The position numbers were made by a program, and so were the translations under genes. DNA of 40,341 bases from an uncultured Pseudomonadales bacterium (GTDB taxonomy: Bacteria > Patescibacteriota > Microgenomatia > UBA1400 > RBG-16-45-19): NCBI GenBank assembly GCA_964554085.1, contig CAZKMY010000001.1, positions 4,949 through 45,289 of the forward strand, written 5' to 3'. Position 1 is the first letter of the stretch. Every line of letters starts with the position of its first letter. The notes below the pieces were generated by a model. It ran no database searches and was not told where the DNA came from. It saw nothing but the letters and a program-made list of their open reading frames with translations. Positions 85-38,445 of the stretch are shown piece after piece.

Positions 85-948
85 TCAGCAATTGAATAAT
101 TCGTGCATCGCGCGCGGAATAGCCTGCAATAAATCCGACGCGTTATAAAACCGCCCTACTTGATCCGCGCACAATTCCCCCGCCCGTTTATTCACTCGGC
201 TCGCAGCCACTGCCGCTGGCAAAATCTCATTTGTGGTACACAATGCCGCTGCCAATCCTGCCAACACATCTCCAGTTCCCCCTTTTGTCATCCCCACATT
301 GCCCCCCTCCACCTTTACCACCTCATCTCCTTGCACGATCATATCCGTCTTCCCTTTCAATATAATCGTCAATCCATCATGTTCCTGAGAAAATGCTTTT
401 AGTTTTTTTTCTTCCTGTGTCCTGCCCCCTGTCTCCTGTCCACTGATCCTCTCCCACTCCTTATGATGCGGGGTAATCAACATATTGCCCGTCAACAATT
501 CCGAATCAACTTCCTGTAACGCTCCTCCATCAATCACCCATCGTTTATCCGGAAACCGCCGCAATAAATGATTAACCACCTCATGGGTAGCTGCTTCACC
601 TTGTTCCAATCCCTCCTGCCGTGTCATCCCCGGTCCAATTAAAATACAATCATCTTCTGCAATATATTCTTCAACCCGTTCCCATGGCACCACTATCCCA
701 TTCCAAAAATGCTCCTTAAGCCGCGTCCGCATCAGGTGATTATTTACTTCAGCCGGACTTGTCACATGTACCATATCCACGACCCTGCTTGCCACCTCCG
801 CCGACCAAATCAAGCTCGCATGAAACAGCTCCGATCCTCCAATTACCAACAATTTCCCATTTTGTCCCTTATGCGAATCGCCTTGTGGTTGAACAAGATT
901 GAACCAATATTCTTGTAACTTGTTGCTTGTAACTTGTTGCTTTTTCAT
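85..948 (-). CDS. nnrD: NAD(P)H-hydrate dehydratase (YjeF C-terminal / Nnr family)
   Basis: 287-aa ORF with ATG at 946-948. Motifs GKLLVIGGS, ITPHHKEWERI and KGGTGDVLAG fit the YjeF_C carbohydrate-kinase fold. Codons 4-12 are encoded by a perfect 14-nt tandem duplication. Confidence 0.75.
   Translation of the reverse strand: MKKQQVTSNKLQEYWFNLVQPQGDSHKGQNGKLLVIGGSELFHASLIWSAEVASRVVDMVHVTSPAEVNNHLMRTRLKEHFWNGIVVPWERVEEYIAEDDCILIGPGMTRQEGLEQGEAATHEVVNHLLRRFPDKRWVIDGGALQEVDSELLTGNMLITPHHKEWERISGQETGGRTQEEKKLKAFSQEHDGLTIILKGKTDMIVQGDEVVKVEGGNVGMTKGGTGDVLAGLAAALCTTNEILPAAVAASRVNKRAGELCADQVGRFYNASDLLQAIPRAMHELFNC
912..939 (+). repeat. Pyrimidine-rich pseudo-tandem element, CTTGT subfamily (perfect 2 x 14 nt: cttgtaacttgttg)
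   Basis: Direct reading: cttgtaacttgttg cttgtaacttgttg. It lies inside the nnr N-terminus and reads as QQVTSNKLQ on the minus strand. Confidence 0.7.
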
Positions 949-964
949 CTTCTTATCATATCTT

Positions 965-2077
965 TCATTTACCTAGCCGCAATATCGACGATTTTCCGGT
1001 TAATTTTTGCACCACCCGTTCATCCGTAGTAGTCAATATAGTTTGCTGTCCCTCAATCATTCTCAGCACCTGCTCTTCGTGAACTTCATCCAACTCACTC
1101 AAAATATCATCTAGCAACAACAACGGGCGCTCCCGTAATCGTTCAGCCATAAACCTGAGTTGAGCTTCTTTTAACCACAACACCGCCATCCGCTGTTCTC
1201 CTCTCGACCCATAAACTGAAAGGTCCCTTTCTTCACCGTTCCCTATACCCTGTCCTCCATCAACTATCCGTATATCATCCTTATGCGGCCCCACCAAAGT
1301 GTATCCAACTGCCAATTCTTCACGCTCATACTGAGCCAGTCGTTCTACCGAAATCGTTGATCGTTCATAATGGACACCAAGATTACCTGACATGCTGGGT
1401 AATTGGTTAATATGTTGCAGCAGCTCTTCGCGCTTCGCACTCATTACCCCCCCATCACGTACCAAGACCTGATCCCAAAAAGCCAAAGCAGTCCGCTGTA
1501 CTTGCCCCTCCCGTATTAAATCCAATAGTTTATTCCGTTGCTTGAGCGCTTTTTCATAGCTAGCCAGACATCGCGCATATTCCCGGTCTACCTGTACCAA
1601 CACATCATCCAAAAACCGCCGCCTGAGTGAAGCAGATCCTACCAACAAATCCATATCCTCTGGTCGAAATAACACCGCTGGCAACTCTCCCACAAAATCT
1701 TGTTTCCTTCTCCCCGCTCCATTAATCTTAAATAACCGTTTTTGTACCCGTTTACCCTGCACCATCCCTCGTGTTACGGTTACCTGCAAAGAAATTTTTT
1801 CCATAGCATCTCCCTTATTAAGGGAGACCGGCTCATTTCCAGATGATGCCGAGAGAGTTACTTCTCCTGTCACATGTCCCACCTCATGCTTCCACGCCAC
1901 CATTTCTTCAATCCGACTAGCCCGAAAACTTTCCCCCGTAGCCAGCAAAAACACCGCCTCCAAAATATTGGTTTTCCCCCGGGCATTGTCTCCCACAATC
2001 ACGGTCACTCCCGAATTAAACTCCGACGCAAGTTGAGCATGATTACGAAATTGGACCAACGACAATGTACTAAGCAC
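965..2077 (-). CDS. recF: DNA replication/repair protein RecF
   Basis: 370 aa with GTG start. N-terminus is LSLVQFRNH, Walker A is GDNARGKTNILEA, and the C-terminal part has LLLLDDILSELD (Walker B / SMC-like). Confidence 0.9.
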   Translation of the reverse strand: MLSTLSLVQFRNHAQLASEFNSGVTVIVGDNARGKTNILEAVFLLATGESFRASRIEEMVAWKHEVGHVTGEVTLSASSGNEPVSLNKGDAMEKISLQVTVTRGMVQGKRVQKRLFKINGAGRRKQDFVGELPAVLFRPEDMDLLVGSASLRRRFLDDVLVQVDREYARCLASYEKALKQRNKLLDLIREGQVQRTALAFWDQVLVRDGGVMSAKREELLQHINQLPSMSGNLGVHYERSTISVERLAQYEREELAVGYTLVGPHKDDIRIVDGGQGIGNGEERDLSVYGSRGEQRMAVLWLKEAQLRFMAERLRERPLLLLDDILSELDEVHEEQVLRMIEGQQTILTTTDERVVQKLTGKSSILRLGK

Positions 2078-2891
2078 GATTCTCCAATGACAAATACTGT
2101 TCTAGTTTCTTTTTCTCCACATCCACTCTCCACCGACCCTTCTTCAGTCGTCGAAAAACCAAAACTAAACTTAATCCCGCCATGACTGAAAACGACAGAA
2201 ACATTGGTAATAGAAGTTGATACTCAGAAAACCGCGGATCCAACTTCTGAATCACGTACAACAACACAGCAAATGCTACCCATACCGCTCCAAATGTTAC
2301 CTTTAAGTCATTCCACCTTCCAAAGTCACCTCCCGAATACCTCGTATAGTTAAACACCGTCAAAAAGAAACTTGCCCCCAATAATATTCCCCGAATTAGA
2401 CCCCAATAAACACTTTGAGGATTTTGTAAAGGCGCATGATTTAATTCCAATATCGTTAATCCAAGCGATGCCAATATCATTCCCGCATACGTTAAGTTAT
2501 GGGAAAACGTCATATGAAAAAATGAGTTTACTTGGCGCGCTTCTGCTTTTTCATTTATTAAATACTCCTGCATCATTTTTGTTACCGCATGGATTGCTAC
2601 TCCCCCATAGGCAAACATCATTGAAAGTAAAACTGTGTCTACCAAAAAAATATCCGATAAAAAAACTGTTTCATTACGAGGTTGACGAGTTATAACCTGA
2701 AGGTAAGAAAAAACCATAGGAAATAAAACCCCTGGAATCAACACGAGATGTATCATTTGTTGAATGGATAGGTGCCAAATTTTCTTTCGATGCAATGATT
2801 GAATTCGGTATATTGAGGCCACCACAAATACAAACACTACCAAAACAGTAAAAAGTCCAGTCCCTCGCATACTACGAATTGTATCACTCAC
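2070..2891 (-). CDS. Polytopic membrane protein, unknown function
   Basis: 273-aa ORF with about 7 hydrophobic segments. It overlaps the recF start by 8 nt and abuts the fpg stop. The start is GTG at 2891, or alternatively ATG at 2870. Confidence 0.55.
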   Translation of the reverse strand: MSDTIRSMRGTGLFTVLVVFVFVVASIYRIQSLHRKKIWHLSIQQMIHLVLIPGVLFPMVFSYLQVITRQPRNETVFLSDIFLVDTVLLSMMFAYGGVAIHAVTKMMQEYLINEKAEARQVNSFFHMTFSHNLTYAGMILASLGLTILELNHAPLQNPQSVYWGLIRGILLGASFFLTVFNYTRYSGGDFGRWNDLKVTFGAVWVAFAVLLYVIQKLDPRFSEYQLLLPMFLSFSVMAGLSLVLVFRRLKKGRWRVDVEKKKLEQYLSLENRA

Positions 2892-3893
2892 TCACCTCTG
2901 GCACTGCGGACAAAAATATGTTCCCCGTCCCCCGAGAGAAATTTTCTGTATGTTCGTATGACAGGCACGACACGGCTGACCTTCTCGATCATAAACCAAG
3001 AATTGGTCTTGATAATGTCCTCCCAAACCCTTGGTGTCCACAAAATGGCTATAGCTGGCTCCACCCGCAGTAATTCCCGCCTCAATCACCTGTTTCATCG
3101 CCTCATGCAACTTTATTACCGCATGCATTTTTAATTGATTTGCAGGCATTTTTGGATGAATACCAGCAAGATATAACGCATCATTTGCGTAAATATTCCC
3201 CATCCCACCAATTTTGTCTTGGTCCAAAATCACCAACTTGACAGCTCGACCTGATGTCCGCAATACCTGACTCAAATAATCCACGGTAAAAGCGTCATCA
3301 ACCACATCTGGAGCCATTCCATCCCTATACCCTACCCACTCCTGCCTATTCACTATTCTGACCCACCCAAACAACCGCTGATCATTAAAGTAAAGGATAC
3401 TACCATCACTAAAGTGAAAGATTACTCGCGTATGCTTGCTCGGCAATTCATGTATCCAATCACGGGTAGGATGTCCACCAACTATACGGTCAGTAACAGC
3501 TTGCCCTGAGCGAAGTCGAAGGGGATGCCCCCCTACAATTCTTTTTTCTTTTTTTTCTGAACCCTGTCCCCTAGACCCTACCGCCTCGTAAATAAGTTGT
3601 CCTGCTGCGCCCCACGAAGTCCCGCCACGGCGGGACGAAGTGGGGTCATTTTCATATATTAATTGTCCCGTCATTTTCAAATGTACCAACACTACCAAAT
3701 CGTCCGTCAGTTCCACCACAATTATCTTCTGCTTTCGCGTTACCGAAACAATCTTCTTCCCCACCAAGAAAGATTTATCCTGAGCGTAGTCGAAGGACTT
3801 ATTTTTCAACACCTCAATCGAATCAATCACTTTCCCCGGCAAAACCGTTTGTAATTGCTGTACTATTGTTTCAACCTCGGGAAGTTCAGGCAT
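2892..3893 (-). CDS. mutM: Formamidopyrimidine-DNA glycosylase (Fpg/MutM) carrying in-frame insertions
   Basis: Start reassigned to ATG 3891-3893, which gives the obligatory MPELPEVET N-terminus. HLKMTGQL is present, as is the C-terminal zinc finger CRACHTN...CPQC. The protein is about 55 aa longer than typical Fpg because of insertions between HLKMTGQLIYE and KHTRVIF. Confidence 0.9.
   Translation of the reverse strand: MPELPEVETIVQQLQTVLPGKVIDSIEVLKNKSFDYAQDKSFLVGKKIVSVTRKQKIIVVELTDDLVVLVHLKMTGQLIYENDPTSSRRGGTSWGAAGQLIYEAVGSRGQGSEKKEKRIVGGHPLRLRSGQAVTDRIVGGHPTRDWIHELPSKHTRVIFHFSDGSILYFNDQRLFGWVRIVNRQEWVGYRDGMAPDVVDDAFTVDYLSQVLRTSGRAVKLVILDQDKIGGMGNIYANDALYLAGIHPKMPANQLKMHAVIKLHEAMKQVIEAGITAGGASYSHFVDTKGLGGHYQDQFLVYDREGQPCRACHTNIQKISLGGRGTYFCPQCQR
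3489..3521 (+). repeat. GC-rich CTGAGCGAAGTCGAAGG core element inserted in frame in fpg (read as LRLRSGQAVTD)
   Basis: Core ctgagcgaagtcgaagg at 3506-3522. It is flanked by two diverged copies of the host segment encoding RIVGGHP (3468-3488 and 3522-3542). Confidence 0.7.
3560..3584 (+). repeat. Pyrimidine-rich element, CCCTRT subfamily, in frame in fpg
   Basis: aaccctgtcccctagaccctaccgc, preceded by the polypyrimidine run cttttttcttttttttc. It reads as GSRGQGSEKKEK on the minus strand. Confidence 0.6.
3610..3645 (+). repeat. Palindromic GC-rich hairpin inserted in frame in fpg
   Basis: ccccacgaagtcccgcc ac ggcgggacgaagtgggg. The outer CCCCA/TGGGG and inner GTCCCGCC/GGCGGGAC arms are complementary. 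Two copies of the host segment encoding GQLIYE flank it (3585-3602 and 3651-3668). Confidence 0.7.
3779..3797 (+). repeat. GC-rich CTGAGCGTAGTCGAAGG core element in frame in the fpg N-terminal domain
   Basis: cctgagcgtagtcgaagga, flanked by the imperfect direct repeats aaagatttat (3769-3778) and aaggacttat (3793-3802). The protein reads KSF-DYAQD-KSF. Confidence 0.6.
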
Positions 3894-3946
3894 TTTCACC
3901 TCTACTGTTCTTGCCCTTCCGTAGCTTTAGCGTAGGAGGGTCTACC

Positions 3947-5080
3947 TCAGGCAATTCTGGCACGCTTCTTCTCCCACTCCCGATTTACCAACTCTTTCAT
4001 CTCCTTTACGAATCGTTCTTTCGAGAATTTTTGTGCATGAAGTCGGATTTTTGATCTCTCAAACGAGATACTCTTACACATCTCAATCCCTTTCACCAGA
4101 CTCTGAGCCGTCAATTCGTCAAAAAAGATGCCTGTTTCCCCCTCGATGATTGTTTCCAAATATCCACCTCCCCGATAGGCAATCACAGGGGTTCCCGCCA
4201 GTTGTGCTTCCACAGGTGTAATCCCGAAATCCTCATCTTTTGCCAAAGCTAAAAATGCAAATGCCCCTGCATACAATGCTCCCAATTTGTCATCGCTCAC
4301 ATGACCTAAAAATTCCACCGTAGGGCCAGCCAAAGCCCGTAAATCCCGTTCTTCATGGCCCCATCCCGCTCCTGTTCCCACCACCTTAAGGGGCATATGG
4401 AGTTGATTCGCTGCCTCGACCGCTAATCCTAATCCTTTCCCTCCAACCAATCTCGATATCACCAATAAATAATCCCCTTTTTCTATCCCCTGTAACCTAT
4501 TATCTATACCCCGTACTTCCACTGGAGGATAAATAACTTCACTTTCTCGTCGCCAGAACTTTGCTATCCGTTTTCGAACATTCTTAGAATTTGCCACTAA
4601 CACATCCACTGTCTGAGCTGTCATGTAATCAAATTGCCGCAATTCTTTGTTTACAATTGCCGCATACACCCGCACTGGCCAATATTTTCTCCAATTAATA
4701 CTCGTGTCATATCCATACAGATAGCGAGGTGGCGTATGAATATATGACACATGCAGCGTTGTATTAGGTACCCGTATTCCTTTTGTCATATACCAAGAAC
4801 TTGAAGAAATCACCACGTCATAGTCAGAAAAATCAAACGACCTCCATATTTGGGGAGCCAAAAACCGCAATGGGCTATGGAGTTTTCGAGCAAAAAATGG
4901 CACGTGGTGAGCCCATGACCCCCGGATATCTCGGTGCTTCAATCGCTCATACGCCGATGACCCACACCGAAAAAAAGCAGTGTAAATGGGAGCCTCTGGA
5001 TACATCTCCGCCAACACTTCCAGCACCCGTTCTGCCCCACCATAGTCATTCAAATAGTCATGAACCAATGCAATTCTCAT
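3947..5080 (-). CDS. Glycosyltransferase, GT4/GT1-fold family
   Basis: 377 aa. N-terminus is MRIALVHDYLNDYGGAERV and the C-terminal part has EDFGITPVEAQLAGTPVIA (EX7E-type motif). Confidence 0.8.
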   Translation of the reverse strand: MRIALVHDYLNDYGGAERVLEVLAEMYPEAPIYTAFFRCGSSAYERLKHRDIRGSWAHHVPFFARKLHSPLRFLAPQIWRSFDFSDYDVVISSSSWYMTKGIRVPNTTLHVSYIHTPPRYLYGYDTSINWRKYWPVRVYAAIVNKELRQFDYMTAQTVDVLVANSKNVRKRIAKFWRRESEVIYPPVEVRGIDNRLQGIEKGDYLLVISRLVGGKGLGLAVEAANQLHMPLKVVGTGAGWGHEERDLRALAGPTVEFLGHVSDDKLGALYAGAFAFLALAKDEDFGITPVEAQLAGTPVIAYRGGGYLETIIEGETGIFFDELTAQSLVKGIEMCKSISFERSKIRLHAQKFSKERFVKEMKELVNREWEKKRARIA

Positions 5081-5087
5081 AGCTATC

Positions 5088-5113
5088 CTCTAAACCCTAT
5101 CCCCTAATTCCTA
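5088..5113 (+). repeat. Pyrimidine-rich element, CCCTRT subfamily (intergenic)
   Basis: ctctaaaccctatcccctaattccta. It fills the spacer between the GT4 start and the exonuclease stop. Confidence 0.6.
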
Positions 5114-6079
5114 AAATAATGCTTCCTGTACTGATTCTTCAAACGTATCCCTCGGCAATTTTGGAATCAGACTTTTAAAATCATATTTTGTCAGCACTGC
5201 AATCGCCTTATTCTTATCATACGTGGTCAACTTGCAATGATCCCAATCCAACTGAATTGGCACATTCGTCACAATGGTTGCCAGTTGTTTACTATCAAAT
5301 GCCTGCTTCCTATCTCTTATCAATTTCTCTGCAATTTTTTTTGATAATTGTCTTGTTTCTTGTTTCTTGTCACTTGTATCTAAATACTCATACACCCCTT
5401 CAACTGATCCATACGCCCCAATTAAATCAGCTGCCGTCTTCGGTCCAATTCCGGTCACTCCCGGAATATTATCACTACTATCCCCCGCCAATCCCTTGTA
5501 ATCAGGTACTTGTTCTGGCCATACCCCTAATAACTCCTTTACACTCGTGCGGTCTACCATTCTTGATTGACGCATACCCGTTCCCGGCACAAACACACTG
5601 ATCACCTCATCCACCAACTGCCACATATCCCGATCCCCCGTCACAATCATCACCTGCACACCACCTTCGCCTAAACCCTGTCCCCTGTCCCCTGTACCCT
5701 GTGCCGCAGCCTGTTTGGCCAACGTCCCAATCACATCATCTGCTTCAAATCCCAACACTGAATACGTCGGAATATTTAAATCTCCTAAAATTTCCTGCAC
5801 AATCGGTTCTTGAGATTTTAATTCATCGGGCATTTTTTCCCGATGTGCCTTGTATGACTCAAACGCTTCGTGCCGAAATGTTTTTCCCACATCAAATGAC
5901 ACCGCTAAATGTGTTGGTTTTAATTCCGTCATGGTGGATAAAAGAATCCGGGTAAATCCATACGCCGCATTCACCAATTGGCCATCTGCCATCGCCAAAC
6001 TTTGAGGAAACGCAAAAAACGCTCGATAAAGGAGTGCATGTCCATCAATAAGCACTAACCGTTTGAGGTCCGTCGTCAT
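5111..6079 (-). CDS. Stand-alone 5'-3' exonuclease / flap endonuclease (Pol I N-terminal domain only)
   Basis: 322 aa. Motifs are LVLIDGHALLYRAFFA, EADDVIGTLA, IVTGDRDMWQL and GDSSDNIPGVTGIGPKTA. There is no polymerase domain. It carries two in-frame low-complexity inserts. Confidence 0.85.
   Translation of the reverse strand: MTTDLKRLVLIDGHALLYRAFFAFPQSLAMADGQLVNAAYGFTRILLSTMTELKPTHLAVSFDVGKTFRHEAFESYKAHREKMPDELKSQEPIVQEILGDLNIPTYSVLGFEADDVIGTLAKQAAAQGTGDRGQGLGEGGVQVMIVTGDRDMWQLVDEVISVFVPGTGMRQSRMVDRTSVKELLGVWPEQVPDYKGLAGDSSDNIPGVTGIGPKTAADLIGAYGSVEGVYEYLDTSDKKQETRQLSKKIAEKLIRDRKQAFDSKQLATIVTNVPIQLDWDHCKLTTYDKNKAIAVLTKYDFKSLIPKLPRDTFEESVQEALF
5349..5383 (+). repeat. Pyrimidine-rich element, CTTGT subfamily, in frame in the exonuclease gene
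   Basis: tgtcttgtttcttgtttcttgtcacttgtatctaa. It closely resembles the element at 18327-18368 and reads as LDTSDKKQETRQ on the minus strand. Confidence 0.7.
5671..5703 (+). repeat. Pyrimidine-rich element, CCCTRT subfamily, in frame in the exonuclease gene
   Basis: ctaaaccctgtcccctgtcccctgtaccctgtg. It reads as AQGTGDRGQGLG on the minus strand. Confidence 0.7.
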
Positions 6080-6088
6080 GAGAGTATT

Positions 6089-6523
6089 CTACTCTCGCTG
6101 TACATCATTCTTAAAAATAAACCGTTCTTGTTTCTCAATGCGATCTATCTTCTTTTCCATTTCATCCAACCGCTCAAACAATTTTCGATGAAAATACTTT
6201 TCTTTTGTATTTTCTAAAGCTAAAGAAAACATTGAAATGATCAAACTAAATGAAAGCACTCCTACCACCGCCAACATCATGGCAATTATCCTTCCCCAAA
6301 AGGTGACTGGCGCCTTATCAGCGCAACCTACTCCCGTTACAGTTAAAACTGACCAATACAGCCCATCAAACCATGTTCGAAAAGATGATAAAGGTTCTCC
6401 TCGTTCAATGGGAACAATTACTAAACCTAAACCTAGAGATAGTGCCACCAATCCTGCCAACAAATACCGAAATCGTCGTTGTTGTAATACTGGCCGAGCA
6501 AACGCATTCACACTCACATTCAT
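6089..6523 (-). CDS. Small 2-TM pore-loop ion channel (K+ channel-like) with a coiled-coil tail
   Basis: 144 aa with two TM helices flanking the pore-loop-like WSVLTVTGVGCAD. This deviates from the canonical TVGYGD filter. Confidence 0.6.
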   Translation of the reverse strand: MNVSVNAFARPVLQQRRFRYLLAGLVALSLGLGLVIVPIERGEPLSSFRTWFDGLYWSVLTVTGVGCADKAPVTFWGRIIAMMLAVVGVLSFSLIISMFSLALENTKEKYFHRKLFERLDEMEKKIDRIEKQERFIFKNDVQRE

Positions 6524-6547
6524 ACTGTTTTACGATACCATATCCCC

Positions 6548-8455
6548 TTAAGCTACTACAGGTTTAGCTTTAGGGAGTCCTACGATATTTTCAAATTCAT
6601 CAGCGTCCAATGACTCATCTTTGAGTAATGCATCAGCAATTGCATCCAGTTGTTTACGGTGTTTTGTAACAACTGATTCAGCCAACGTGTTTCCTGTCAT
6701 CACAATCTGAGCAATTCGTTCATCAACTTTTGCCTGTTTATCTTGAGATAATTGAGCTGGCTCCATGGCTGCTCTCCCCCAATCACTCAAGTCGTACTGT
6801 GGTCCCAGGGCAATTGGTCCCAAATCGCTCATGCCATAATCCACCACCATCGATCGGGCGATTCTCGTGGCTTTTTCAATATCATTTGATGCCCCACCTG
6901 TTAATTCACTAAAAATCAACTGTTCAGTCACCCGGCCAGCCAACAATACCGCAATCTCTTCTTCCAATTCTGATTTCGTTTGCTGATATTTATCCTGTTC
7001 CGGCGGAGTCAAGGTATACCCCAGCGCCATACCGCGTGACACAATACTCACTCGGTGAACTGGATCCGTATGTGGTAACAAATGAGTCACCAACGCATGC
7101 CCTGCTTCGTGATACGCGGTCATTTTCCGTTCTCGCTCATTCTGGAGCCGTTTCTTTTCTGGCCCTAATTTCACCTTCATCGCCGCTTCTTCTAAATCTG
7201 CCGGACCAATTTCTACCCGGTTATCCCGAGCTGTCATAATCGCCGCCTCATTCAACATGTTTTCCAAATCAGCTCCCGAAAATCCCACAGTGCGTTTTGC
7301 CATCGCTTCCCATGACACACCTTCCACAAACGGCTTGTTCGCCGCATGAATCGATAAAATTCGCTTCCTCTCTTCCAAGTCAGGTAATGTGAGCGTAACA
7401 CGGCGGTCAAATCGACCCGGTCGGGTTAATGCCGGATCCAACATGTCACCTCGGTTAGTTGCCGCGAGCACAATCACGGTATCATTGGGAGTAAATCCAT
7501 CCATTTCCACCAAAATTTGATTCAACGTCTGTTCCCGTTCATCGTGTCCCCCAGCTGATCCCATTCCCCGCATCCGTCCAATCGCATCAATTTCATCGAT
7601 AAAAATGATGGCTGGAGCACTCTTCTTGGCAGTTTGGAATAAATCTCGTACCCGGGACGCTCCTACTCCCACCAACATTTCCATAAATTCACTTCCTGCC
7701 ATAGAAAAGAAAGCTACGCCTGCTTCTCCAGCGACTGCTCGAGCCAACAGCGTTTTACCCGTTCCCGAAGGGCCGACCAACAATACGCCCTTGGGCGTAC
7801 GAGCACCCAATTTACGATATTTTTGAGGATGTTTCAAAAAGTCGACGACTTCTTCCAATTCTTTCTTAGCCTCAGGCACACCACCCACATCTTTAAACGT
7901 AATACTCTGTTTACCTTTAGAAAATAGCTTTGCTTTACTCCGACCAAATCCCATGATTCCATCTTGAGATCCCCGAGCTTGCCGGAATATGACAAACAAG
8001 AAAATCACCATCAGTAAAATGGGCAATCCATTTACCAATAAATCTGTCCATGCTCTTCCTGCCGACAAATCTTCCACATCCACCTTCGCTGTCGCCAAAT
8101 CCACTCCAGAGTTGTACAACAGTTGTGCCAAACTAATCGATTCTTCCTTTACAGCCTGTTTGGCGGGAGTACCATCCTTGTAATTAATTTTAATCTGCGA
8201 TCCAGACACTTTAATCTTTTCCACCTTACCGGCTTTAACATCTTCTACCATCTGAGATACACTAATCTTCTCTGCTCTACCACCTGAAAACAAATTCATC
8301 AAAAACGGCAAAAAGAGTAAAGCCACCAAAAACCACACCAACAAGTTTTTGCTATTAAATTCCAACTTAAACTCCATCCGTTTCATTGATTGAGGTGAGG
8401 GTGTCTTCTTTGCTTGATTAGGTAGCTCTTGGTTCTTTATGTCTTTCTTTGCCAT
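6548..8455 (-). CDS. ftsH: ATP-dependent zinc metalloprotease FtsH
   Basis: 635 aa. It has an N-terminal TM pair, Walker [18 protein letters not shown], and the zinc motif HEAGHAL. Confidence 0.95.
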
Positions 8456-8464
8456 GATGATTCC

Positions 8465-8812
8465 TTAGATTAATCGATCTCCGTTCTGTAATTTGTGATC
8501 AAAACGCACCAATTCAGGTCGTTGTTCTTCATCCACCATCGCATCAGCGGCAAACAACATACCTTGACTCTCGCCAAAATCTCCCATCTTGCGAGGAGCT
8601 AAATTTACCACAAAAGTTGTCTGTACGCCAACCAAATCTTCTGGTGTAAACCACTGCAAAATGCCAGAAAAAATCACCCGCTCTCCCAATTCGCTTCCAA
8701 AATCTATCGTCAACTTGATTAATTTCTTCGACCCTTCAGGAACTTCTGCCTTCGCAATCGTCCCCACCCGAATATCCACTTTCGAAAAATCATCATACGT
8801 AATGCAATCCAT
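8465..8812 (-). CDS. tRNA-binding domain protein (CsaA / EMAP-II-like OB fold)
   Basis: Start moved to ATG 8810-8812 (MDCITYDDFSKVDIRVGTI...), giving 115 aa. The longer track ORF reads through the upstream repeat element. Confidence 0.7.
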   Translation of the reverse strand: MDCITYDDFSKVDIRVGTIAKAEVPEGSKKLIKLTIDFGSELGERVIFSGILQWFTPEDLVGVQTTFVVNLAPRKMGDFGESQGMLFAADAMVDEEQRPELVRFDHKLQNGDRLI

Positions 8813-8834
8813 CTTATTTATTCCTTTTTTTTGA

Positions 8835-8932
8835 TTTCCCTCAGATTCTAGCAAATTCAGCGCGCAATCATCCAAAGCTGAGCTTGCCGAAGCTGAAGGG
8901 CGTGAGCACTGCAATTTGCGAATCGAGGGAAA
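8835..8932 (+). repeat. Long imperfect hairpin repeat, copy R1 (termini TTCAGCGCGCAATCA ... GAAGGGCGTGAGCACTGCAA)
   Basis: Outer stem is TTTCCCTC (8835-8842) with GAGGGAAA (8925-8932). The next stem is GATTC-ta-GCAAATT with AATTTGC-GAATC. The interior holds gctgagcttgccgaagctgaagggcgtgagcactgc. Confidence 0.75.
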
Positions 8933-8938
8933 TTCCTC

Positions 8939-10654: not shown

Positions 10655-10796
10655 ATTTCTTGTGTCTTGTATCTTCATAGGCAGTTGCACCGCGTCCCTC
10701 GTAACCCGCCATAGGCGGGTGAAGTGGGACTTCCCCATAATACCATTGAACCGCATCTTTTCCTCTTCCCAAGAGTCAAGGTATAATACGTCAAGC

Positions 10797-11300
10797 ATGT
10801 TACGCAAAAAAATACAATTCTTTCGTTTACTCATTATCGGAATTGTTGTTGTTGGATCACTATCAAGTATCACAACTCCTGTTATTGCCCTCAGTGAGAG
10901 TACTTCCGAAGCAAGTACAAGTGGAGTTGGAGGTTCCTCAAGTTGGTCTCATACTGCTGATTTTGACATGTGTAAAGGGGTCTCTGATGCTGGATGTCGC
11001 GATTGTGTAGGGGAGGACTACAAACACATGTGGACCGCTCTTGGTTGCATTCCCACTGATCCTAAAGAATTTACGACCGCATTTTTAAGAATCTCTATTG
11101 GTGTAGCTGGAGGAATCGCTCTTCTTCTCATGGTTTATGGAGCTTTTCTTGTTTCGGTTTCTGCGGGTGACCCCAAAAAAGCTGATGAAGGTAAAGAGAT
11201 TATTACGGGTACCATTGCCGGACTTTTATTTATAATCTTTTCTGTCGTTCTCTTAAAGCTTATCGGCGTTGATATCCTTCAAATTCCGGGGTTGAAATAA
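10797..11300 (+). CDS. Pilin-like protein P1: Cys-containing ectodomain fused to a VirB2/TrbC-like two-helix hairpin
   Basis: ATG 10797 follows TATAAT (10782-10787) by 9 nt. It has a signal/anchor MLRKKIQFFRLLIIGIVVVG and 4 Cys in CKGVSDAGCRDCVGEDYKHMWTALGC. The C-terminus GGIALLLMVYGAFLVSVSAGDPKKADEGKEIITGTIAGLLFIIF matches the paralogue motif. Confidence 0.6.
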   Translation: MLRKKIQFFRLLIIGIVVVGSLSSITTPVIALSESTSEASTSGVGGSSSWSHTADFDMCKGVSDAGCRDCVGEDYKHMWTALGCIPTDPKEFTTAFLRISIGVAGGIALLLMVYGAFLVSVSAGDPKKADEGKEIITGTIAGLLFIIFSVVLLKLIGVDILQIPGLK

Positions 11301-11304
11301 TCCT

Positions 11305-11673
11305 ATGAAGAAAATCGCAAAAATTCTTTTTACTTTTTCTTTATTCCCTTTTTTTTCTCATCCTGTTCATGCCGAAGACACCGATATTACCGGAATGGTT
11401 TCTTCAGTTCCGGGATTCAAACCAATTCTCAACAGTCCAACGAATGTCATCAGCGAACTGCTTCCCTACGTATTGACCCTCGCTGGTCTTATCCTCTTTG
11501 GCATGCTCATCATGGGTGGTTTTGAAATTATGACTGCCGCCACTGATGCTAAAAAAGCTGACGCGGGCAAAGCCCGCATCACCACCGCTGTTATTGGTTT
11601 TGTGATCATTTTTGCCGCCTATTGGATTACTCAAATCCTTGAAATCATGACCGGTGTCTCCATCCTGAAATAA
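11305..11673 (+). CDS. Pilin-like protein P2 (VirB2/TrbC-like T4SS pilin family)
   Basis: 122 aa with signal peptide MKKIAKILFTFSLFPFFSHPVHA. Hairpin is GLILFGMLIMGGFEIMTAATDAKKADAGKARITTAVIGFVIIFAAYW. Confidence 0.65.
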   Translation: MKKIAKILFTFSLFPFFSHPVHAEDTDITGMVSSVPGFKPILNSPTNVISELLPYVLTLAGLILFGMLIMGGFEIMTAATDAKKADAGKARITTAVIGFVIIFAAYWITQILEIMTGVSILK

Positions 11674-11677
11674 TCCT

Positions 11678-13162: not shown

Positions 13163-13171
13163 AAGAGTTTT

Positions 13172-14173: not shown

Positions 14174-14176
14174 GAT

Positions 14177-14359
14177 CTAACATTCAACTTCCGGCCCACG
14201 TATATACGTTTCGTATATCTCAGGGTTAGCATCATACATTCTCTGCAATTCCTCAATTGTAAAACCGCACAAACCAATCTCTGCGACAGCGGCTGTGGTC
14301 AAATCACTTACTGCATTTTCCGCAACTTGCCCTTCTAAGCACTCCTGTTTTTGTGACAT
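14177..14359 (-). CDS. Small acidic hypothetical protein (60 aa)
   Basis: ATG 14357-14359 is preceded by GGAG at about 8 nt. The ORF ends 3 nt before the decarboxylase start, so it appears to be in the same operon. Confidence 0.4.
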   Translation of the reverse strand: MSQKQECLEGQVAENAVSDLTTAAVAEIGLCGFTIEELQRMYDANPEIYETYIRGPEVEC

Positions 14360-14423
14360 ATATTTCTCCAAAAAAATAAACGCTAAAACTCTAACTAACA
14401 CTTAGTCGTGTATTCTACCAAAA

Positions 14424-34345: not shown

Positions 34346-35749
34346 TTAATACACATATAAGCGCTTTCGTACCGCTCCTACATCAAGGCGGAGAGACTCA
34401 GACTCTTGAAGTTCATGAGTAATCTTCTCGACTGCGTGCATGACGGTAGTATGATCTCGGCCGGAAAAAAGATCTCCTATCTCCATCAGGGGAATCCGAT
34501 AGTCAATTCGCAGTAAATACATGGCAATATGACGGGGAACCACGATCTTTTGAGTTCTGCCACTTCCTTTAAGCTGTTTGACATTGATTCCAAAATGATC
34601 AGCTACCCCCTTTATGAGTTCTGCTGGACGCAGTGGGGGTGGGGCATTCCCTCCGGAAGTAGCTGCTTCAGGCACCTTTCCCAGTGTTGCGAGCACTAAT
34701 TCTTGAGTTAACTCTTTTTTATGAAGTTTTACTTCCGTAGTAAGTTTGACCAAAAATCCCTCAATCTGACGCGCACTCTCAATATTGGCGGCAATTGCTT
34801 GGGCCATTTCCATAGATAATAGTAAATTTCGCTGCTTCGCCTTGATAAGGACAATCGCTGCCCGCAGCTCGAAATCAGGGTTCCCAATATCAACCAAGAG
34901 CCCTGCTTCAAATCGAGATCGAAGACGCGCTTCCAGCATTTTAATCTCTGAAGGGGGGCGATCACTGGTCATTACCACCTGACCTCCACCCTTCAAAATG
35001 GCATTAAACGTATGAAAGAATTCTTCCTGAACCGCATTCTTTCCGGCAATAAACTGAATATCGTCAATAAAAAGCCCTTTAACTTGACGATACCGCTGTT
35101 TAAATTCCCGAGTTGTTTTTTGTTGGATCGCATCAATGATCTCGTTGGTAAACTCCTCTCCCATACAAAAGATGAGTTTCATTTTAGGATCTTTTCTCAA
35201 AGCCTCAATAGCAACCGCTTGCATCAAGTGAGTTTTTCCTACTCCCACCCCCCCATAAATAAAGAGAGGATTGTAGGCTTTCCCCAAGTCTGCCGCTACC
35301 GCCTGGGCCGCCGCATGAGCCATCTCATTACTGGAAGACACGGCAAACGTTTCAAACACAAAATCTTCCCGCAGTCCTACCCGCTGAATTGCCCAATGGA
35401 GGTCGTCGGCCCGTTGTTCTTGGGCAGCAAATAGGGGGCCTGCATCAACAGCTCCTTTCGTGGGCTGGGCCGCAGTTGTCACAATCACAAACCTCAGCTC
35501 CACCGAAGCTTTGGTAATCCTTCCCAGCGCTTCTTGGATTTGTCCATAAAACCGCTGTTCAATAATTCGTTGATGGAACAAGGAGGGGCACTGAATATCT
35601 GCAATAATACGTCCAGACTCCGTTGTGGTGAGTTCGGCCAAGGATAAGGGCTTTATCCAACTGGTATAGGTTGCGGGCGACAGTGAGACCTGAAGATCTT
35701 CTGCCACCAGCTTCCAGACAGACGCAGGTTCATTCATAATGGTATTCAT
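34346..35749 (-). CDS. dnaA: Chromosomal replication initiator DnaA
   Basis: Walker A GGVGVGKTHLMQA, FIDDIQF, and the C-terminal DNA-binding part DHTTVMHA. The start is uncertain: ATG 35749 is chosen, ATG 35737 is possible, and the track start 35809 is GTG. Confidence 0.9.
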   Translation of the reverse strand: MNTIMNEPASVWKLVAEDLQVSLSPATYTSWIKPLSLAELTTTESGRIIADIQCPSLFHQRIIEQRFYGQIQEALGRITKASVELRFVIVTTAAQPTKGAVDAGPLFAAQEQRADDLHWAIQRVGLREDFVFETFAVSSSNEMAHAAAQAVAADLGKAYNPLFIYGGVGVGKTHLMQAVAIEALRKDPKMKLIFCMGEEFTNEIIDAIQQKTTREFKQRYRQVKGLFIDDIQFIAGKNAVQEEFFHTFNAILKGGGQVVMTSDRPPSEIKMLEARLRSRFEAGLLVDIGNPDFELRAAIVLIKAKQRNLLLSMEMAQAIAANIESARQIEGFLVKLTTEVKLHKKELTQELVLATLGKVPEAATSGGNAPPPLRPAELIKGVADHFGINVKQLKGSGRTQKIVVPRHIAMYLLRIDYRIPLMEIGDLFSGRDHTTVMHAVEKITHELQESESLRLDVGAVRKRLYVY

Positions 35750-35890
35750 ATAAAAACACGATTGTGGCAGAGTGGCAGTCTTCGGGTACAGACTAAAAAA
35801 GTTTTCCACAATTGTAAAGACCCAATTTTCATCAAGAATTGTGAGAAGAAATCAACGAAAGGATGTGGTAAGATACTCCCTGTTATTTAA

Positions 35891-35922
35891 CTACACCCTA
35901 TCCCCTACCTCCTATACCCTAA
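35891..35922 (+). repeat. Pyrimidine-rich element, CCCTRT subfamily, upstream of rpmH
   Basis: ctacaccctatcccctacctcctataccctaa. Confidence 0.6.
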
Positions 35923-35931
35923 AAGGAAAAT

Positions 35932-36072
35932 ATGATCAAACGCACCTGGCAACCAAAAAAACTCAAACGCGTCCGTAAGTTCGGCTTCATGGAACGTATG
36001 AATTCTGGTGATGGTAAACGTATTTTGTCTCGCCGCCGCCAAAAAGGCCGCACCAAATTGGTCACCGCCTAA
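35932..36072 (+). CDS. rpmH: 50S ribosomal protein L34
   Basis: Not in the ORF track because it is under 60 aa. Manual translation gives MIKRTWQPKKLKRVRKFGFMERMNSGDGKRILSRRRQKGRTKLVTA. It sits in the canonical position before rnpA. Confidence 0.9.
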   Translation: MIKRTWQPKKLKRVRKFGFMERMNSGDGKRILSRRRQKGRTKLVTA

Positions 36073-36081
36073 CCAAATAAA

Positions 36082-36402
36082 ATGATCCCCGCACAGTATC
36101 GATTAAAGCTTTCCTCGAAAAGCCGTTTTTTAGGAACTAAAAAATCGGGTTTTTGGGTCACCTACGTCACTGCTTCCGCAGACACTCCCCGGTGGGCAGT
36201 GCGCATCACCAAGCGGGTTATTCCCCTCGCCTCACATCGCAATCGCCTTCGTCGACAAATCAATCAGTGGTTGTATAAACAAAGAGAATCATTGTTAAAT
36301 CAATCTATTTTAATAATCATTATGCATGAACCCTCTACTCCAGCAGAATTAGAAGCACTACAAAATGAGCTACAACCATGTTTCAAGCAGAATCAAGAAT
36401 AG
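36082..36402 (+). CDS. rnpA: Ribonuclease P protein component
   Basis: 106 aa and basic. It contains [20 protein letters not shown] and shows synteny with rpmH and yidD. Confidence 0.8.
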
Positions 36403-36614
36403 TTCAGGGGTATAAATTTCTTCGCCAACTCTTTAGTCTCCCGTTGGCAGCCTTAGGAATTACAGAGCATAATTGCCGCTTTTCTCCCACCTGTAGCGAA
36501 TATTGTGGTGAAGCCATTCACAAATACGGATTACTCAAAGGTGGAACAAAATGTGTCGGTCGTATTGTCCGCTGTCGTCCCGGCGTCCCCGGCGGGTTCG
36601 ATCCTTTGACTTAG
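36378..36614 (+). CDS. yidD: Membrane protein insertion efficiency factor YidD
   Basis: [44 protein letters not shown]. Confidence 0.85.
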
Positions 36615-36640
36615 GACTCATGACTTATGACTTAACACTT
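36607..36640 (+). repeat. Pseudo-tandem element, GACTYA subfamily (yidD-yidC spacer)
   Basis: tgacttaggactcatgacttatgacttaacactt. Confidence 0.65.
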
Positions 36641-36647
36641 TTCTGCA

Positions 36648-36656
36648 TGATATACT
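36648..36656 (+). promoter_or_regulatory. Extended -10-like element TGaTATACT, 9 nt upstream of the yidC ATG
   Basis: gcaTGaTATACTtccccatgtATG. Confidence 0.3.
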
Positions 36657-36665
36657 TCCCCATGT

Positions 36666-37439
36666 ATGTTTCAAACACTACTAATCCAACCACTTACCTT
36701 TGTTCTCGCGACCATTACCACTACAGTGGGTAATTATGGCACGGGAATCATTTTATTAACGCTGATTATTCGGTTAGTTCTTCTTCCCATCACCCTTCCC
36801 TCTTTAAAAATGGCCGCCAAGATGCGAGACCTGCAACCCGAAATTGATAAACTAAAGAAAAAATATGGTCAAGACAAAGTTGCTCTTCAACAAGCTCAAC
36901 TCGCTTTATTTCAAGAACATAAAATTAATCCTGCGAGTGGTTGTCTTCCCAACATTTTTCAATTCATTATCTTAATTGCGCTGTATCAAGTAATTAATGG
37001 GGTTACTACTCATCATCCTGCCGGAGCAATTCAATTCTTGTGGTTAGACATTACGAAAGCCGACTCACTCTACATCCTTCCCGTCGTTGCAGCGCTCACC
37101 CAGCTTATTCTCGGAGTGATGATGTTGCCGGCTACGGACACCTCTGCTGAACAAGCTTTGGCTGCCACCACAAACACGAAAGAAGACGATAAAAAAGCTG
37201 ATGATATGACCGCTATGGCTCAATCCATGCAACAACAAATGCTGTTTATGATGCCCGTAATGACCCTCTTCCTTGCTCTTAAATTTCCCGCAGGTCTTAC
37301 GCTGTACTGGGTAATTACCACAGTTTTTAGTATTGGTCAGCAATACATTGCCTCCGGTTGGGGAGGCCTCCCACACTCGGTTACCAAAACAAAAGTGTGG
37401 CTGTCTCGAGTATCAACTCGGAAGACTTCCACAAAATAG
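36666..37439 (+). CDS. yidC: YidC/Oxa1-family membrane protein insertase (short form)
   Basis: 257 aa. Motifs are GIILLTLIIRLVLLPIT, NPASGCLP and LTLYWVITTVFSIGQQ. Confidence 0.85.
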   Translation: MFQTLLIQPLTFVLATITTTVGNYGTGIILLTLIIRLVLLPITLPSLKMAAKMRDLQPEIDKLKKKYGQDKVALQQAQLALFQEHKINPASGCLPNIFQFIILIALYQVINGVTTHHPAGAIQFLWLDITKADSLYILPVVAALTQLILGVMMLPATDTSAEQALAATTNTKEDDKKADDMTAMAQSMQQQMLFMMPVMTLFLALKFPAGLTLYWVITTVFSIGQQYIASGWGGLPHSVTKTKVWLSRVSTRKTSTK

Positions 37440-37451
37440 AAAGGATTCGTC

Positions 37452-37916
37452 ATGACTGACAATCGCCTACAAAAAATTGAAGATTTACTCAAAGGTATGA
37501 GTTTTTCTGACGCTCAAATTTCCGCTGAAGAAACTGATGGCCATGTCCAAATTGCTATCACTCTCCCCGAAACCGACTCGGGGGCCCTTATTGGGTATCA
37601 TGGGGAAAAAATCGATGCCCTTCAGTTAGTTGCCAATTTGATGTGGAATCAGAACGCCGTTGTCTATACTCCCGTCCAAATAGACATTAATGGCTATCGG
37701 GCTCGTCGCCGCCAAACTCTGGAAGACTTAGCGGACAAAGCCGCTGCTAAAGCCATCGAAAGTGGCCGAGAAATTCTTCTCCCCCATCTTCCCAGTTACG
37801 AACGCCGCATTATTCATCTCTACCTCGAAAATAGATCTGACGTTACCACCTATTCAGAGGGTGAGGGGGAAGAGCGCCGCTTAGTTGTCCGCCCCGGCAC
37901 TGAATCTGCCGAATAA
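37452..37916 (+). CDS. jag: Jag/SpoIIIJ-associated RNA-binding protein (KH + R3H)
   Basis: 154 aa. The KH-like segment is LIGYHGEKIDALQ and the R3H segment is LPSYERRIIHLYL. Confidence 0.75.
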   Translation: MTDNRLQKIEDLLKGMSFSDAQISAEETDGHVQIAITLPETDSGALIGYHGEKIDALQLVANLMWNQNAVVYTPVQIDINGYRARRRQTLEDLADKAAAKAIESGREILLPHLPSYERRIIHLYLENRSDVTTYSEGEGEERRLVVRPGTESAE

Positions 37917-37923
37917 GAGCCAA

Positions 37924-38382
37924 ATGACAGCCGCCTATACCCTAAACCCTATCCCCTCCACCCTCGTCATTCACACTGATGGTGGTTCTCGTGGAAATCC
38001 CGGACCTGCCGCCACGGGAATTGTAATCCTTACGGAAAACGATGAAGTAATTCATGAGTTTGGCACCTATTTAGGCACTGCCACAAACAACGTTGCAGAA
38101 TATACTGCCGTCATTGATGCCCTAAAATGGCTTACCACCAATGACTTAGGACTCAACACTCATGACTTATCACTTTCCTTCAAGCTTGATTCTAAACTTG
38201 TTGTAGAGCAACTCAGTCATAATTGGAAGATTAAAGAATTTCATCTTGAGAAACTCGCGCAAACAGTATGGGAAATGCTTAAATCGAGCCATATATCAGC
38301 TAAATTTGAGTATATTCCTCGTGCACAAAACGCCGCCGCTGACCGCCAGGTCAACTTAACTCTTGATGCTGCGCTAATATAA
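37924..38382 (+). CDS. rnhA: Ribonuclease HI-family protein
   Basis: ATG 37924, 152 aa. Motifs are IHTDGGSRGNPGPAATG, NNVAEYTAVIDAL, LDSKLVVEQL and AQNAAADRQVN. It carries two in-frame low-complexity inserts. Confidence 0.75.
   Translation: MTAAYTLNPIPSTLVIHTDGGSRGNPGPAATGIVILTENDEVIHEFGTYLGTATNNVAEYTAVIDALKWLTTNDLGLNTHDLSLSFKLDSKLVVEQLSHNWKIKEFHLEKLAQTVWEMLKSSHISAKFEYIPRAQNAAADRQVNLTLDAALI
37934..37965 (+). repeat. Pyrimidine-rich element, CCCTRT subfamily, in frame at the rnhA N-terminus
   Basis: cctataccctaaaccctatcccctccaccctc, read as YTLNPIPSTL. Confidence 0.6.
38142..38173 (+). repeat. Pseudo-tandem element, GACTYA subfamily, in frame in rnhA
   Basis: atgacttaggactcaacactcatgacttatca, read as NDLGLNTHDLS. 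Confidence 0.65.
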
Positions 38383-38389
38383 AAATATA

Positions 38390-38445
38390 GTCTTCCATAC
38401 TTCCCATACTTCTATACCTCCCATACTTCCCTGTATACTATCCCC
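38390..38445 (+). repeat. Pyrimidine-rich pseudo-tandem element (CATACTTCC type) filling the rnhA-virB4 spacer
   Basis: gtcttccatacttcccatacttctatacctcccatacttccctgtatactatcccc. The -10-like TATACT (38434-38439) lies 6 nt before ATG 38446. Confidence 0.65.

Follow-up and report, generated by a model that had tools for sequence, protein, structure and literature searches.

Heptameric simple-sequence repeats (SSRs) are generally over-represented, and three tandemly repeated heptanucleotides are known from the cyanobacterium Calothrix PCC 7601 (PMC4692102). The subject of this work is a set of short, pyrimidine-rich arrays in a 40-kb stretch of DNA (positions 1–40341, hereafter the window) from a Microgenomates bacterium of the Candidate Phyla Radiation (CPR); most likely, they belong to the same STRR-like class of heptameric SSRs, here present in a Microgenomates subclade. 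The Calothrix heptanucleotides, and the name STRR, are reportedly due to Mazel et al. 1990. Like the STRR, the arrays consist of tandem 7-nt units, fall into several families within one genome, are short, numerous, and dispersed, and have no known function, and one unit of the window (CCCCTGT) resembles an STRR unit (CCCCAGT). Unlike the STRR, they are found in a CPR host with a very small genome, two-thirds of them touch coding sequence or first codons, they have a single chromosomal polarity, and they are composed of 3–6 units.

Two other groups of heptamer repeats are close enough to be compared. The G-rich repeats GGGAATC of Xanthomonas and GGGGA(C/T)T of Nostoc PCC 7120 are preferentially present as four units and form G-quadruplexes (G4) (Rehm et al. 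2015, PMC4692102). They are 89–93% intergenic (the range given for Xanthomonas), show no preference for the leading or lagging strand, and often occur as inverted pairs (PMC4692102). The CCCTRTC family of the window reads (GGGGAYA)n on the other strand and, like these repeats, typically has 4 units and lies near the ends or starts of open reading frames (ORFs). The window arrays are, however, not predominantly intergenic, none is inverted, and the families CTTGT and GACTYA cannot form G4. The direct repeats of TAACTGA, found in Beggiatoaceae, cyanobacteria, and Bacteroidetes as 2–6 copies mixed with related heptamers (MacGregor 2015, PMC4679880), are concentrated directly upstream of start codons and occasionally occur in frame at protein termini; close strains differ by indels in 7-nt steps, and a subset has one chromosomal orientation in Microcystis (PMC4679880). 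While the orientation of TAACTGA follows the downstream gene, that of the window arrays follows the chromosome strand; moreover, their units are different, and no single one is dominant. In Nostoc punctiforme, Elhai et al. 2008 (Genome Res 18:1484; cited in PMC3116915) are said to have found SDR elements of 21–27 nt, very small mobile repeats embedded in heptamer arrays, which reportedly occur at unrelated sites and inside genes without destroying them, and have a conserved secondary structure with compensatory changes. The window arrays differ from the SDRs in that they have no predicted structure and are themselves the heptamer repeats.

A first-pass annotation of the window knew of no described class of elements to which the arrays could be assigned, but such a class exists, as tandem heptanucleotide repeats had already been described (PMC4692102, PMC4679880). 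No report of heptamer repeats in CPR was found in a full-text literature search. The arrays are set apart from the known heptamer repeats by their host phylum, by having one polarity on the chromosome, by how often they lie inside genes or at gene starts, and by the persistence of sites while families are replaced. The gene content of the window is typical of CPR, with many TrbC/VirB2-like pilins, VirB4, mevalonate-pathway genes, and small housekeeping genes. Among named organisms, Microgenomates group bacterium RBG_16_45_19 is the nearest, with 53% identity in the exonuclease, and an exact-protein look-up of the window exonuclease returned no record.

Period, families, and density of the arrays

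The 13 pyrimidine-rich blocks listed in the first-pass annotation were all recovered at their coordinates, each with the pyrimidine-rich strand on the plus strand, and two more were found, at 412 and 10645. Their units had been described as 6–9 nt long. Tandem Repeats Finder assigned most of the listed arrays to period 7, with no comparable cluster at other periods. The same period emerged from a lag-match census, in which regions that were not of low complexity and had ≥15/21 lag matches were counted and compared with 200 order-2 Markov shuffles. In this analysis, we detected 11 period-7 arrays in the window, against 0.35 expected (shuffle maximum of 3). Slight enrichment was observed at period 6 (5 arrays vs. 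0.9 expected) and period 9 (2 vs. 0.02), and none at periods 5, 8, and 10–12. The unit is a heptamer, with the sole exception of the block at 38390, which has period 9 and a 17-nt higher order and is a different kind of repeat. This leaves 14 heptamer arrays in the window, belonging to at least four unit families.

The existence of a few subfamilies was confirmed, since counts against expectation and an independent repeat finder both supported three main ones. In the window, AACCCTRTCCCCT occurs 5 times (0.16 expected), CTTGTNNCTTGT 10 times, on the plus strand every time (0.08 expected), and TGACTTAGGACTCA 4 times when up to 2 mismatches are allowed (0.30 expected). The repeat finder recovered these families as direct repeats, and no inverted ones. 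In each family, a core of 5 nt is kept in every unit and the other 2 positions vary; these variable positions do not fall on codon third positions. The arrays are imperfect, the order of the units is shuffled from copy to copy within a family, and the flanks of arrays of the same family are unrelated to each other.

For comparison, relatives and background sequences were labeled as loci L001–L184. The density of arrays is ∼0.27/kb both in the window and in L001–L005 (20 arrays in 74.6 kb), against 0.03–0.04/kb in unrelated loci (1.95 Mb). Over the clade, 23 exact 7-nt tandem duplications were counted, with 7.2 expected. The array type (CTTGTNN)n is present in the window, L001, L004, and L005, with 22 of 22 matches on the C-rich strand, and in 3 of 154 other loci (∼1.9 Mb); single CTTGT words outside arrays are not polarized (42 vs. 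37). Families are common to species with 79%–85% YidC identity, again with unrelated flanks. The relatives obtained in a DnaA metagenome scan are from other lineages (≤48% identity) and were used as a background set, not for the comparison of orthologs. The first-pass annotation had named two outcomes as fatal to its proposal, namely counts at the level of shuffled sequence with both orientations equally frequent, and conservation at the protein level of the in-gene segments in distant relatives lacking the motif; neither was found.

Insertion sites and turnover among relatives

Synteny with the window was available for L001–L005 over positions 85–13162 and for L169, L171, L172, L175, L176, and L178 around dnaA-yidC-rnhA. 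Additionally, L161–L168 are Logan short-read contigs, 97%–100% identical, that match positions 35608–38366. These alignments show the arrays to be lineage-specific insertions at permissive sites, namely in loops of proteins, at the first codons of genes, and in short leaders. The first-pass annotation had proposed looking for insertion polymorphism in relatives, and it was indeed found at the exonuclease, yidC leader, and rnhA sites. All the arrays given below have the pyrimidine-rich strand on the plus strand.

The 5′–3′ exonuclease, encoded on the minus strand, contains two arrays. The first (5349–5383; CTTGT type, 4.4 units), encoding DTSDKKQETRQ, is a 27-nt insertion missing in L001 and L002; the second (5671–5709; CCCTGTC, 4 units), encoding GTGDRGQGLG and with a canonical G4 motif on the minus strand, is a 30-nt insertion missing in L001–L003. 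Compared with PDB 6vde, a solved Pol I 5′-nuclease, they are insertions of 9 and 12 amino acids, respectively. Two arrays are also found in rnhA, on the plus strand. The one at 37934–37966 (CCCTRT type, 4 units) covers codons 4–14, adds 24 nt relative to L169, and has a canonical G4 motif on the minus strand, while the one at 38142–38178 (GACTYA type, 5 units), encoding NDLGLNTHDLS, aligns with a pre-existing loop of PDB 3u3g and has just 2 residues extra. The array at 36607–36644 (GACTYA type, 5 units) includes the stop codon of yidD and takes up the spacer between yidD and yidC, directly upstream of the conserved extended −10 TGATATACT (36648–36656); this spacer measures 51 nt in the window, whereas in L169, which has no array there, it measures 15 nt.

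Among the minus-strand genes, nnr has an array of the TCCTGTC type with ∼5 units (412–448, relative position 0.58), one of the two that were absent from the earlier list; L004 and L005 have arrays at the matching relative position of nnr. Codons 2–12 of nnr coincide with the CTTGT-type array at 912–942 (CTTGTAA/CTTGTTG, with a perfect 14-nt higher order). A degenerate CCCTRT-type array (3560–3590) lies within a ∼50-amino acid lineage-specific insertion of Fpg, in a loop that holds different heptamer arrays in L002 and L005. This Fpg insertion (3489–3650, minus strand) also shows an internal duplication (GQLIYE and RIVGGHP twice each) and the segment LRLRSGQA, and another Fpg loop has GPAS...GRS insertions in L002 and L004. 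A second degenerate CCCTRT-type array (5088–5118) occupies the 30-nt spacer directly upstream of the start of a glycosyltransferase gene, and the short CTTGT-type array at 10645–10677, the other addition to the list, covers the start codon and leader of a SpoIID-like gene and is identical in L001.

On the plus strand, the array at 16078–16113 (GACTYA type, ∼5 units) is at the 5′ end of a membrane-protein ORF, and the ATG inside it is a possible candidate for the start codon. The leader of the pilin gene P8 contains an array at 18327–18370 (CTTGT type, 5 units), situated between a promoter-like site, TTGACA-18-TAAAAT, and the Shine-Dalgarno sequence, and the hydrophobic core of the signal peptide of P9 is encoded by the array at 18859–18896 (CTTTCTA, 4 units). 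In the 5′ leader of rpmH, the array at 35891–35925 (CCCTRT type, 4 units) is between the conserved upstream TGGTAAGATACT and the Shine-Dalgarno sequence; it is orthologous in L161, decayed in L169 and L175, the differences being point changes only, and absent in L171 and L172. The exceptional block at 38390–38435, a period-9 array of CATACTTCC, comprises tandem −10/discriminator-like copies beside the conserved TGTATACT of virB4, and is partly common to L169, which has fewer copies and a 20-nt hairpin-like insert.

Altogether, 10 of the 15 arrays are ≤22 nt from a start codon, and 9 of the 15 are inside ORFs or over first codons. The enrichment at gene starts is as predicted if insertions are tolerated there, in a genome that is 92% coding. 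In-gene copies are all in frame, and the frame tolerance and the peptides given in the first-pass annotation were correct. Arrays are on the sense strand of plus-strand genes and on the antisense strand of minus-strand genes, which rules out a uniform role at the RNA or gene level. The earlier description of arrays overlapping −10 and start regions held for their proximity to starts, but not for promoters: in scans around the leader arrays, sigma-70-like promoters and terminators were at chance level, and where conserved extended −10 elements are recognizable (TGATATACT of yidC, TGTATACT of virB4, and TGGTAAGATACT of rpmH), the array adjoins the element and is not within it. All three promoters are kept in relatives with and without arrays. 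The suggested role as promoter building blocks was dropped, as promoter-like sites were at chance level and array-free relatives keep the same promoters. As for the positions of these elements, TGATATACT and TGTATACT (38432–38439) are separated by only 5–9 nt from the start codons (ATG) of yidC and virB4, a hint that the transcripts of these two genes may be leaderless, while TGGTAAGATACT (35866–35877) is farther upstream of rpmH.

For four arrays, each strand was folded in silico, and the predicted structures were no better than those of shuffles (z from −1.1 to +0.7), and a reading as REP, MITE, or riboswitch-like elements was dropped on this account. Folding and a repeat search of the window revealed no terminal inverted repeats, hairpins, or inverted partners, and scans of the window with Rfam (gathering thresholds) and for tRNA and tmRNA gave no match. 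Only two canonical G4 motifs were found in the window, both of them CCCT arrays with 4 units (5676–5699 and 37940–37963). As judged from their sequences, the other CCCT copies and the CTTGT, GACTYA, and CTTTCTA families do not have the ≥4 G-tracts of ≥3 G that define such a motif.

Different families were observed at the same site in related genomes. At the N terminus of rnhA, the window has a CCCTRT array, L171, L172, L173, and L175 have a GACTYA array that adds 21 nt, exactly 3 units, and L169, L176, and L178 have none. In the rnhA loop, the window has GACTYA, while CCCTRT is found both in another species (L175) and in another strain (L161); the loop array of L161 is within a 140-nt tract that is ∼20% divergent, in surroundings that are 97%–99% identical. 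In the yidC leader, the GACTYA array of the window corresponds to a CCCTRT-type block in L171 and L175 and to an empty site in L169 and L172. At relative positions 0.50 and 0.88 of the glycosyltransferase, the window is below threshold, and L001–L004 have arrays of differing units. Other arrays persist. At the C terminus of the glycosyltransferase, (GNNACAA)4, encoding KLQxTSYKxQ, is unchanged in register and length between L001, L004, and L005; it has been homogenized to (GCTGGAA)4 in L002 and has decayed in the window. The alignment indicates that this array is ancient and that the L002 copy reflects concerted evolution within one array.

No 7-nt change in copy number was seen in the arrays shared by the 97%–100% identical strains L161–L168. 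The unit numbers at 35891, 36607, and 37934 are identical across these strains, and the differences consist of point changes or of whole-array replacement in a divergent recombination tract. Short-read contigs from several samples break at arrays, with three starting at 36646 and others ending at 37897, 37909, and 38041, which suggests strain heterogeneity or graph branching. With regard to the relatives themselves, the identity of L001 to the window is a mosaic (∼99% over 6548–10873 and ∼79% over 85–6523), as is that of L169 (99% over 31438–32840 and 84% over 32947–40265), in both cases with an intergenic breakpoint; this could be due to homologous recombination between species-level lineages or to co-assembly chimeras.

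Near-identical arrays were also found at non-orthologous sites. The arrays at 5349 and 18327 are identical in 30 of 32 positions, the shared non-repeat tail TATCTAA included, and those at 36607 and 38142 in 31 of 35. Between genomes, the 16078 array matches the rnhA N-terminal array of L172/L173 (26/28), the 912 array matches the glycosyltransferase C-terminal array of L001 (25/28), and the 5088 array matches the block in the yidC leader of another species, L171 (19/20). These identities are partly forced by the core, which is conserved at 5 of 7 positions, and empty sites are present in L169. No target-site duplication was visible at the insertion junctions inspected, and no gene for a transposase or reverse transcriptase was found in the window.

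Two further observations concern the window outside the arrays. A 44-nt direct repeat, 95% identical, is found at 8871–8914 and 15208–15251, 6.3 kb apart; its translation, LQCSRPSASA, falls at the edges of two ORFs. Positions 10950–19215 contain a series of small, paralogous TrbC/VirB2-like pilin genes, at least eight in number and with internal segments that are conserved, followed by VirB6-like, PrgI-like, TraC-like, and VirB4 genes, a CPR type IV secretion or pilus cluster.

Chromosomal strand bias and array orientation

In the Microgenomates order UBA1400 (Ch65, Collierbacteria, and Beckwithbacteria), one strand is richer in C along the entire chromosome (PMC7143001), which the authors of that work read as essentially one-way replication (Kadnikov et al. 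2020, PMC7143001). The window shows the identical trait. Its plus strand has 26.7% C and 17.6% G (GC content of 44%), the GC skew is negative in all 2-kb windows, and no reversal occurs at dnaA (34346–35737) or rpmH; the skew does not flip at dnaA in five relatives either (L169, L171, L172, L176, and L178). As a measure of neutral composition, the 4-fold degenerate sites of 37 window genes were read on the plus strand. Their GC skew is −0.46 for plus-strand and −0.48 for minus-strand genes, their AT skew is −0.20 and −0.14, respectively, and ∼65% of them are pyrimidines whatever the gene direction. A large secreted-protein gene (19230–21898, plus strand) has reversed 4-fold skews (GC +0.29 and AT +0.29), against about −0.5 in all its neighbors, and may be the result of a recent inversion, or of import from the other strand or another replicon. 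A weak 4-fold skew was also observed in dnaA (−0.04) and yidC (−0.21).

All 15 arrays of the window have the same orientation, and the claim that it is kept whatever the direction of the gene was borne out. When L001–L005 are included, the pyrimidine-rich side of the period-7 arrays coincides with the C-rich strand of the chromosome in 31 of 31 cases; one purine-rich exception is known, in L175 (4984–5014). With bulk mono- and dinucleotide composition as the null, 20 of 31 would be expected (joint P ∼6e-7), while the composition of 4-fold sites predicts 24.6 of 31 (joint P 3e-4). After this rise in P, polarity was no longer taken as strong evidence for a strand-specific mechanism. Our conclusion is that most of the polarity derives from the strand bias of the background, and that any extra bias in the formation or retention of arrays is at most modest. 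The first-pass annotation had stressed that the orientation is the same on both sides of the putative origin. This was observed, but it is a property of the chromosome (PMC7143001): the polarity is alike on both sides because one C-rich strand spans the whole UBA1400-type chromosome. Likewise, the replication-linked origin it had hinted at is plausible for the polarity, which is nevertheless largely inherited from the background mutation bias. Tandem heptamers or repeat families are not mentioned in the paper on strand disparity in UBA1400 (PMC7143001), and the link between arrays and strand bias is drawn in the present analysis.

In keeping with this conclusion, lineages without strand bias (L091, L100, L109, L137, and L183) have heptamer arrays of either orientation, in some cases with inverted pairs, and in Xanthomonas and Nostoc the heptamer repeats are as frequent on one strand as on the other (PMC4692102). 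In L091 (GC content of 62%), dense heptamer arrays form inverted pairs over 3246–11104, where hairpins are possible. Scans of viral contigs for two array cores matched seven contigs, of which four (L180, L182, L183, and L184) have heptamer arrays of their own. L180 and L184, which are unrelated contigs of the viral collection, contain (GGGGATA/GGGGACA)n, and L183, from the same collection, contains eight arrays in 12 kb (987–6705) with CCCTAAA/CCCTATC and CCTGTCA units, in both polarities. No link of the matched viral contigs to the lineage of the window was found, as composition and skew differ, and L183 had no match among GenBank phages.

Origin of the arrays

We lean towards the explanation that these are STRR-like heptameric arrays that originate locally and are remodeled in 7-nt steps, that selection filters them to permissive, frame-preserving sites, and that they are oriented mainly by the chromosome-wide mutation bias. 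Specifically, we infer an origin by slippage or template switching, and neutrality. Arrays would arise and be remodeled in place, by duplication, slippage, or template switching, and selection would leave copies only at permissive places, such as the surface loops, first codons, and very short leaders of this 92%-coding genome; inside genes, it would keep copies with a net length that is a multiple of 3. Most arrays would have no function, and some old ones would now be ordinary coding sequence. Their uniform orientation would be mainly a by-product of strand-asymmetric mutation pressure, with one strand C/T-rich at neutral sites everywhere. The asymmetry probably derives from essentially one-way replication, and a modest extra strand bias in array formation may add to it. 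Signs of local origin were observed: where the window exonuclease array begins with ACAAGTG, L001 and L002 have AAGTGA; at the other exonuclease site, a proto-array of two units is present in L001; and the array in the rpmH leader has decayed by point mutation in L169 and L175.

A number of observations weigh against this explanation. Neither the unit order shared beyond the repeated core at unrelated sites nor the unlike families at one site in related genomes (rnhA N terminus, rnhA loop, and yidC leader) is explained by local slippage alone. The polarity exceeds that of the neutral-composition null (31/31; P 3e-4), in arrays that are not all independent, and among exact 7-nt duplications, 22 are pyrimidine-rich and 1 purine-rich, where a pyrimidine-rich fraction of 0.69–0.80 would be expected. 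The skew is present, but no period-7 array, in L176 and L178 (∼20 kb each) and in L169 (16 kb), which shows that strand bias alone does not create arrays; array richness is either confined to a subclade or strongly variable between genomes or regions. Near-identical strains show no 7-nt length difference, and thus no sign of ongoing slippage. Finally, the explanation leaves the 7-nt length of the unit unaccounted for.

Part of this evidence would be better explained if the arrays were ultra-small, non-autonomous copy-and-paste cassettes of ∼28–40 nt (CCCTRT, CTTGT, and GACTYA), inserted by a trans-acting, strand-specific activity, a possibility that we regard as the main alternative, real but unlikely. 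For example, single-stranded DNA or reverse-transcribed RNA might integrate at the replication fork, with one orientation relative to replication, and cassettes might repeatedly land at, or replace each other on, permissive "landing pads." Replication-polarized single-strand transposition in the IS200/IS605 family is a precedent, and the SDR elements reported from Nostoc are another. Such insertion accounts better than local remodeling for the shared unit order at unrelated sites and for family replacement, as seen at the two rnhA sites and in the yidC leader, and it fits the near-identical arrays at non-orthologous sites within the genome and between species, the families shared by species of 79%–85% YidC identity with unrelated flanks, the fairly narrow length range of 3–6 units, and the polarity left over after composition. 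Against it are the missing terminal inverted repeats, hairpins, and target-site duplications, and a unit order that is shuffled between copies of a family, as in mosaics of degenerate units and not in copies of a master element. High pairwise identity is partly imposed by the 5-of-7 core, and some arrays decay or persist in place over long times. The window has no transposase or reverse transcriptase, and the published relative Ch65 has no mobile-element genes (PMC7143001). The recurrence of CCCTAAA/CCCTATC variants in unrelated viral-collection contigs makes convergence possible. That the arrays are specifically products of an undescribed strand-specific copy-and-paste process, by which 28–40-nt cassettes swap at fixed landing pads in housekeeping genes, appears more doubtful still.

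It is improbable, in our view, that the arrays are functional, chromosome-polar motifs, that is, reiterated sites for a strand-specific protein of the KOPS, Chi, or primase-site kind, or, for the CCCT family, G4 or i-motif elements that affect replication or expression near gene starts. The 5-nt core kept in every unit, the variable positions falling off codon third positions, and the (CTTGTNN)n type, on the C-rich strand in 22 of 22 matches and found in 3 of 154 other loci, would be in agreement with such sites, as would the 10 of 15 arrays within 22 nt of a start codon, although this enrichment is also predicted by the tolerance filter. Moreover, the only two canonical G4 motifs are CCCT arrays, and their 4 units equal the number in the G4-forming repeats of Xanthomonas and Nostoc (PMC4692102), but one family of the three is G4-capable. 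The arrays are dispensable, as the close relative L169 lacks them at the same genes with promoters intact; families are interchangeable at one site, arrays are on coding and template strands alike, and single CTTGT words are unpolarized (42 vs. 37), in contrast to true architecture-imparting motifs.

A role as contingency loci, in which slippage by 7 nt would turn genes on or off or adjust promoter strength, is very improbable. Heptanucleotide SSRs have been cataloged in Haemophilus influenzae (PMC2651432), gain or loss of one 7-nt unit would cause a frameshift, promoters, leaders, or first codons are the location of many arrays, and the contigs that break at arrays suggest heterogeneity in the population. 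However, arrays of 3–6 imperfect units are a poor substrate for slippage, 97%–100% identical strains show no 7-nt change in length, the in-gene copies are all in frame, and the genes that contain arrays or adjoin them have housekeeping roles (exonuclease, Fpg, RNase H, YidC, and rpmH) and are not surface or restriction-modification genes. Lastly, a chance or compositional artifact of the pyrimidine-rich strand, or an assembly artifact, was refuted: the plus strand is strongly C- and T-rich, which favors pyrimidine-rich words, but dinucleotide- or order-2-preserving shuffles give 0.35 arrays against 11 observed, family cores occur 5–10 times against 0.1–0.3 expected, and identical arrays are present in independent assemblies (L161–L168 and L001).

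Why tandem heptamers are over-represented in bacteria, and how the arrays spread, has been a standing question since their description in cyanobacteria in about 1990. The lineage studied here offers a clean test bed, with a tiny, 92%-coding genome and no known mobile elements. Its one compositionally distinct strand, extending chromosome-wide, makes the link between arrays and the replication strand readable from orientation, and the arrays are frequent enough for gain, loss, decay, and family replacement to be traced at single sites across relatives. In practice, in-frame, lineage-specific insertions in conserved enzymes and contig ends at or beside arrays have consequences for how CPR genomes are annotated and binned. 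Should the arrays be no more than neutral by-products of slippage with a strand bias, they modestly extend a known class of repeats to a new phylum. If, instead, cassette exchange were true, they would be among the smallest mobile DNA units known, capable of rewriting protein loops and N termini, and would provide a handle on why bacterial repeats favor 7 nt.

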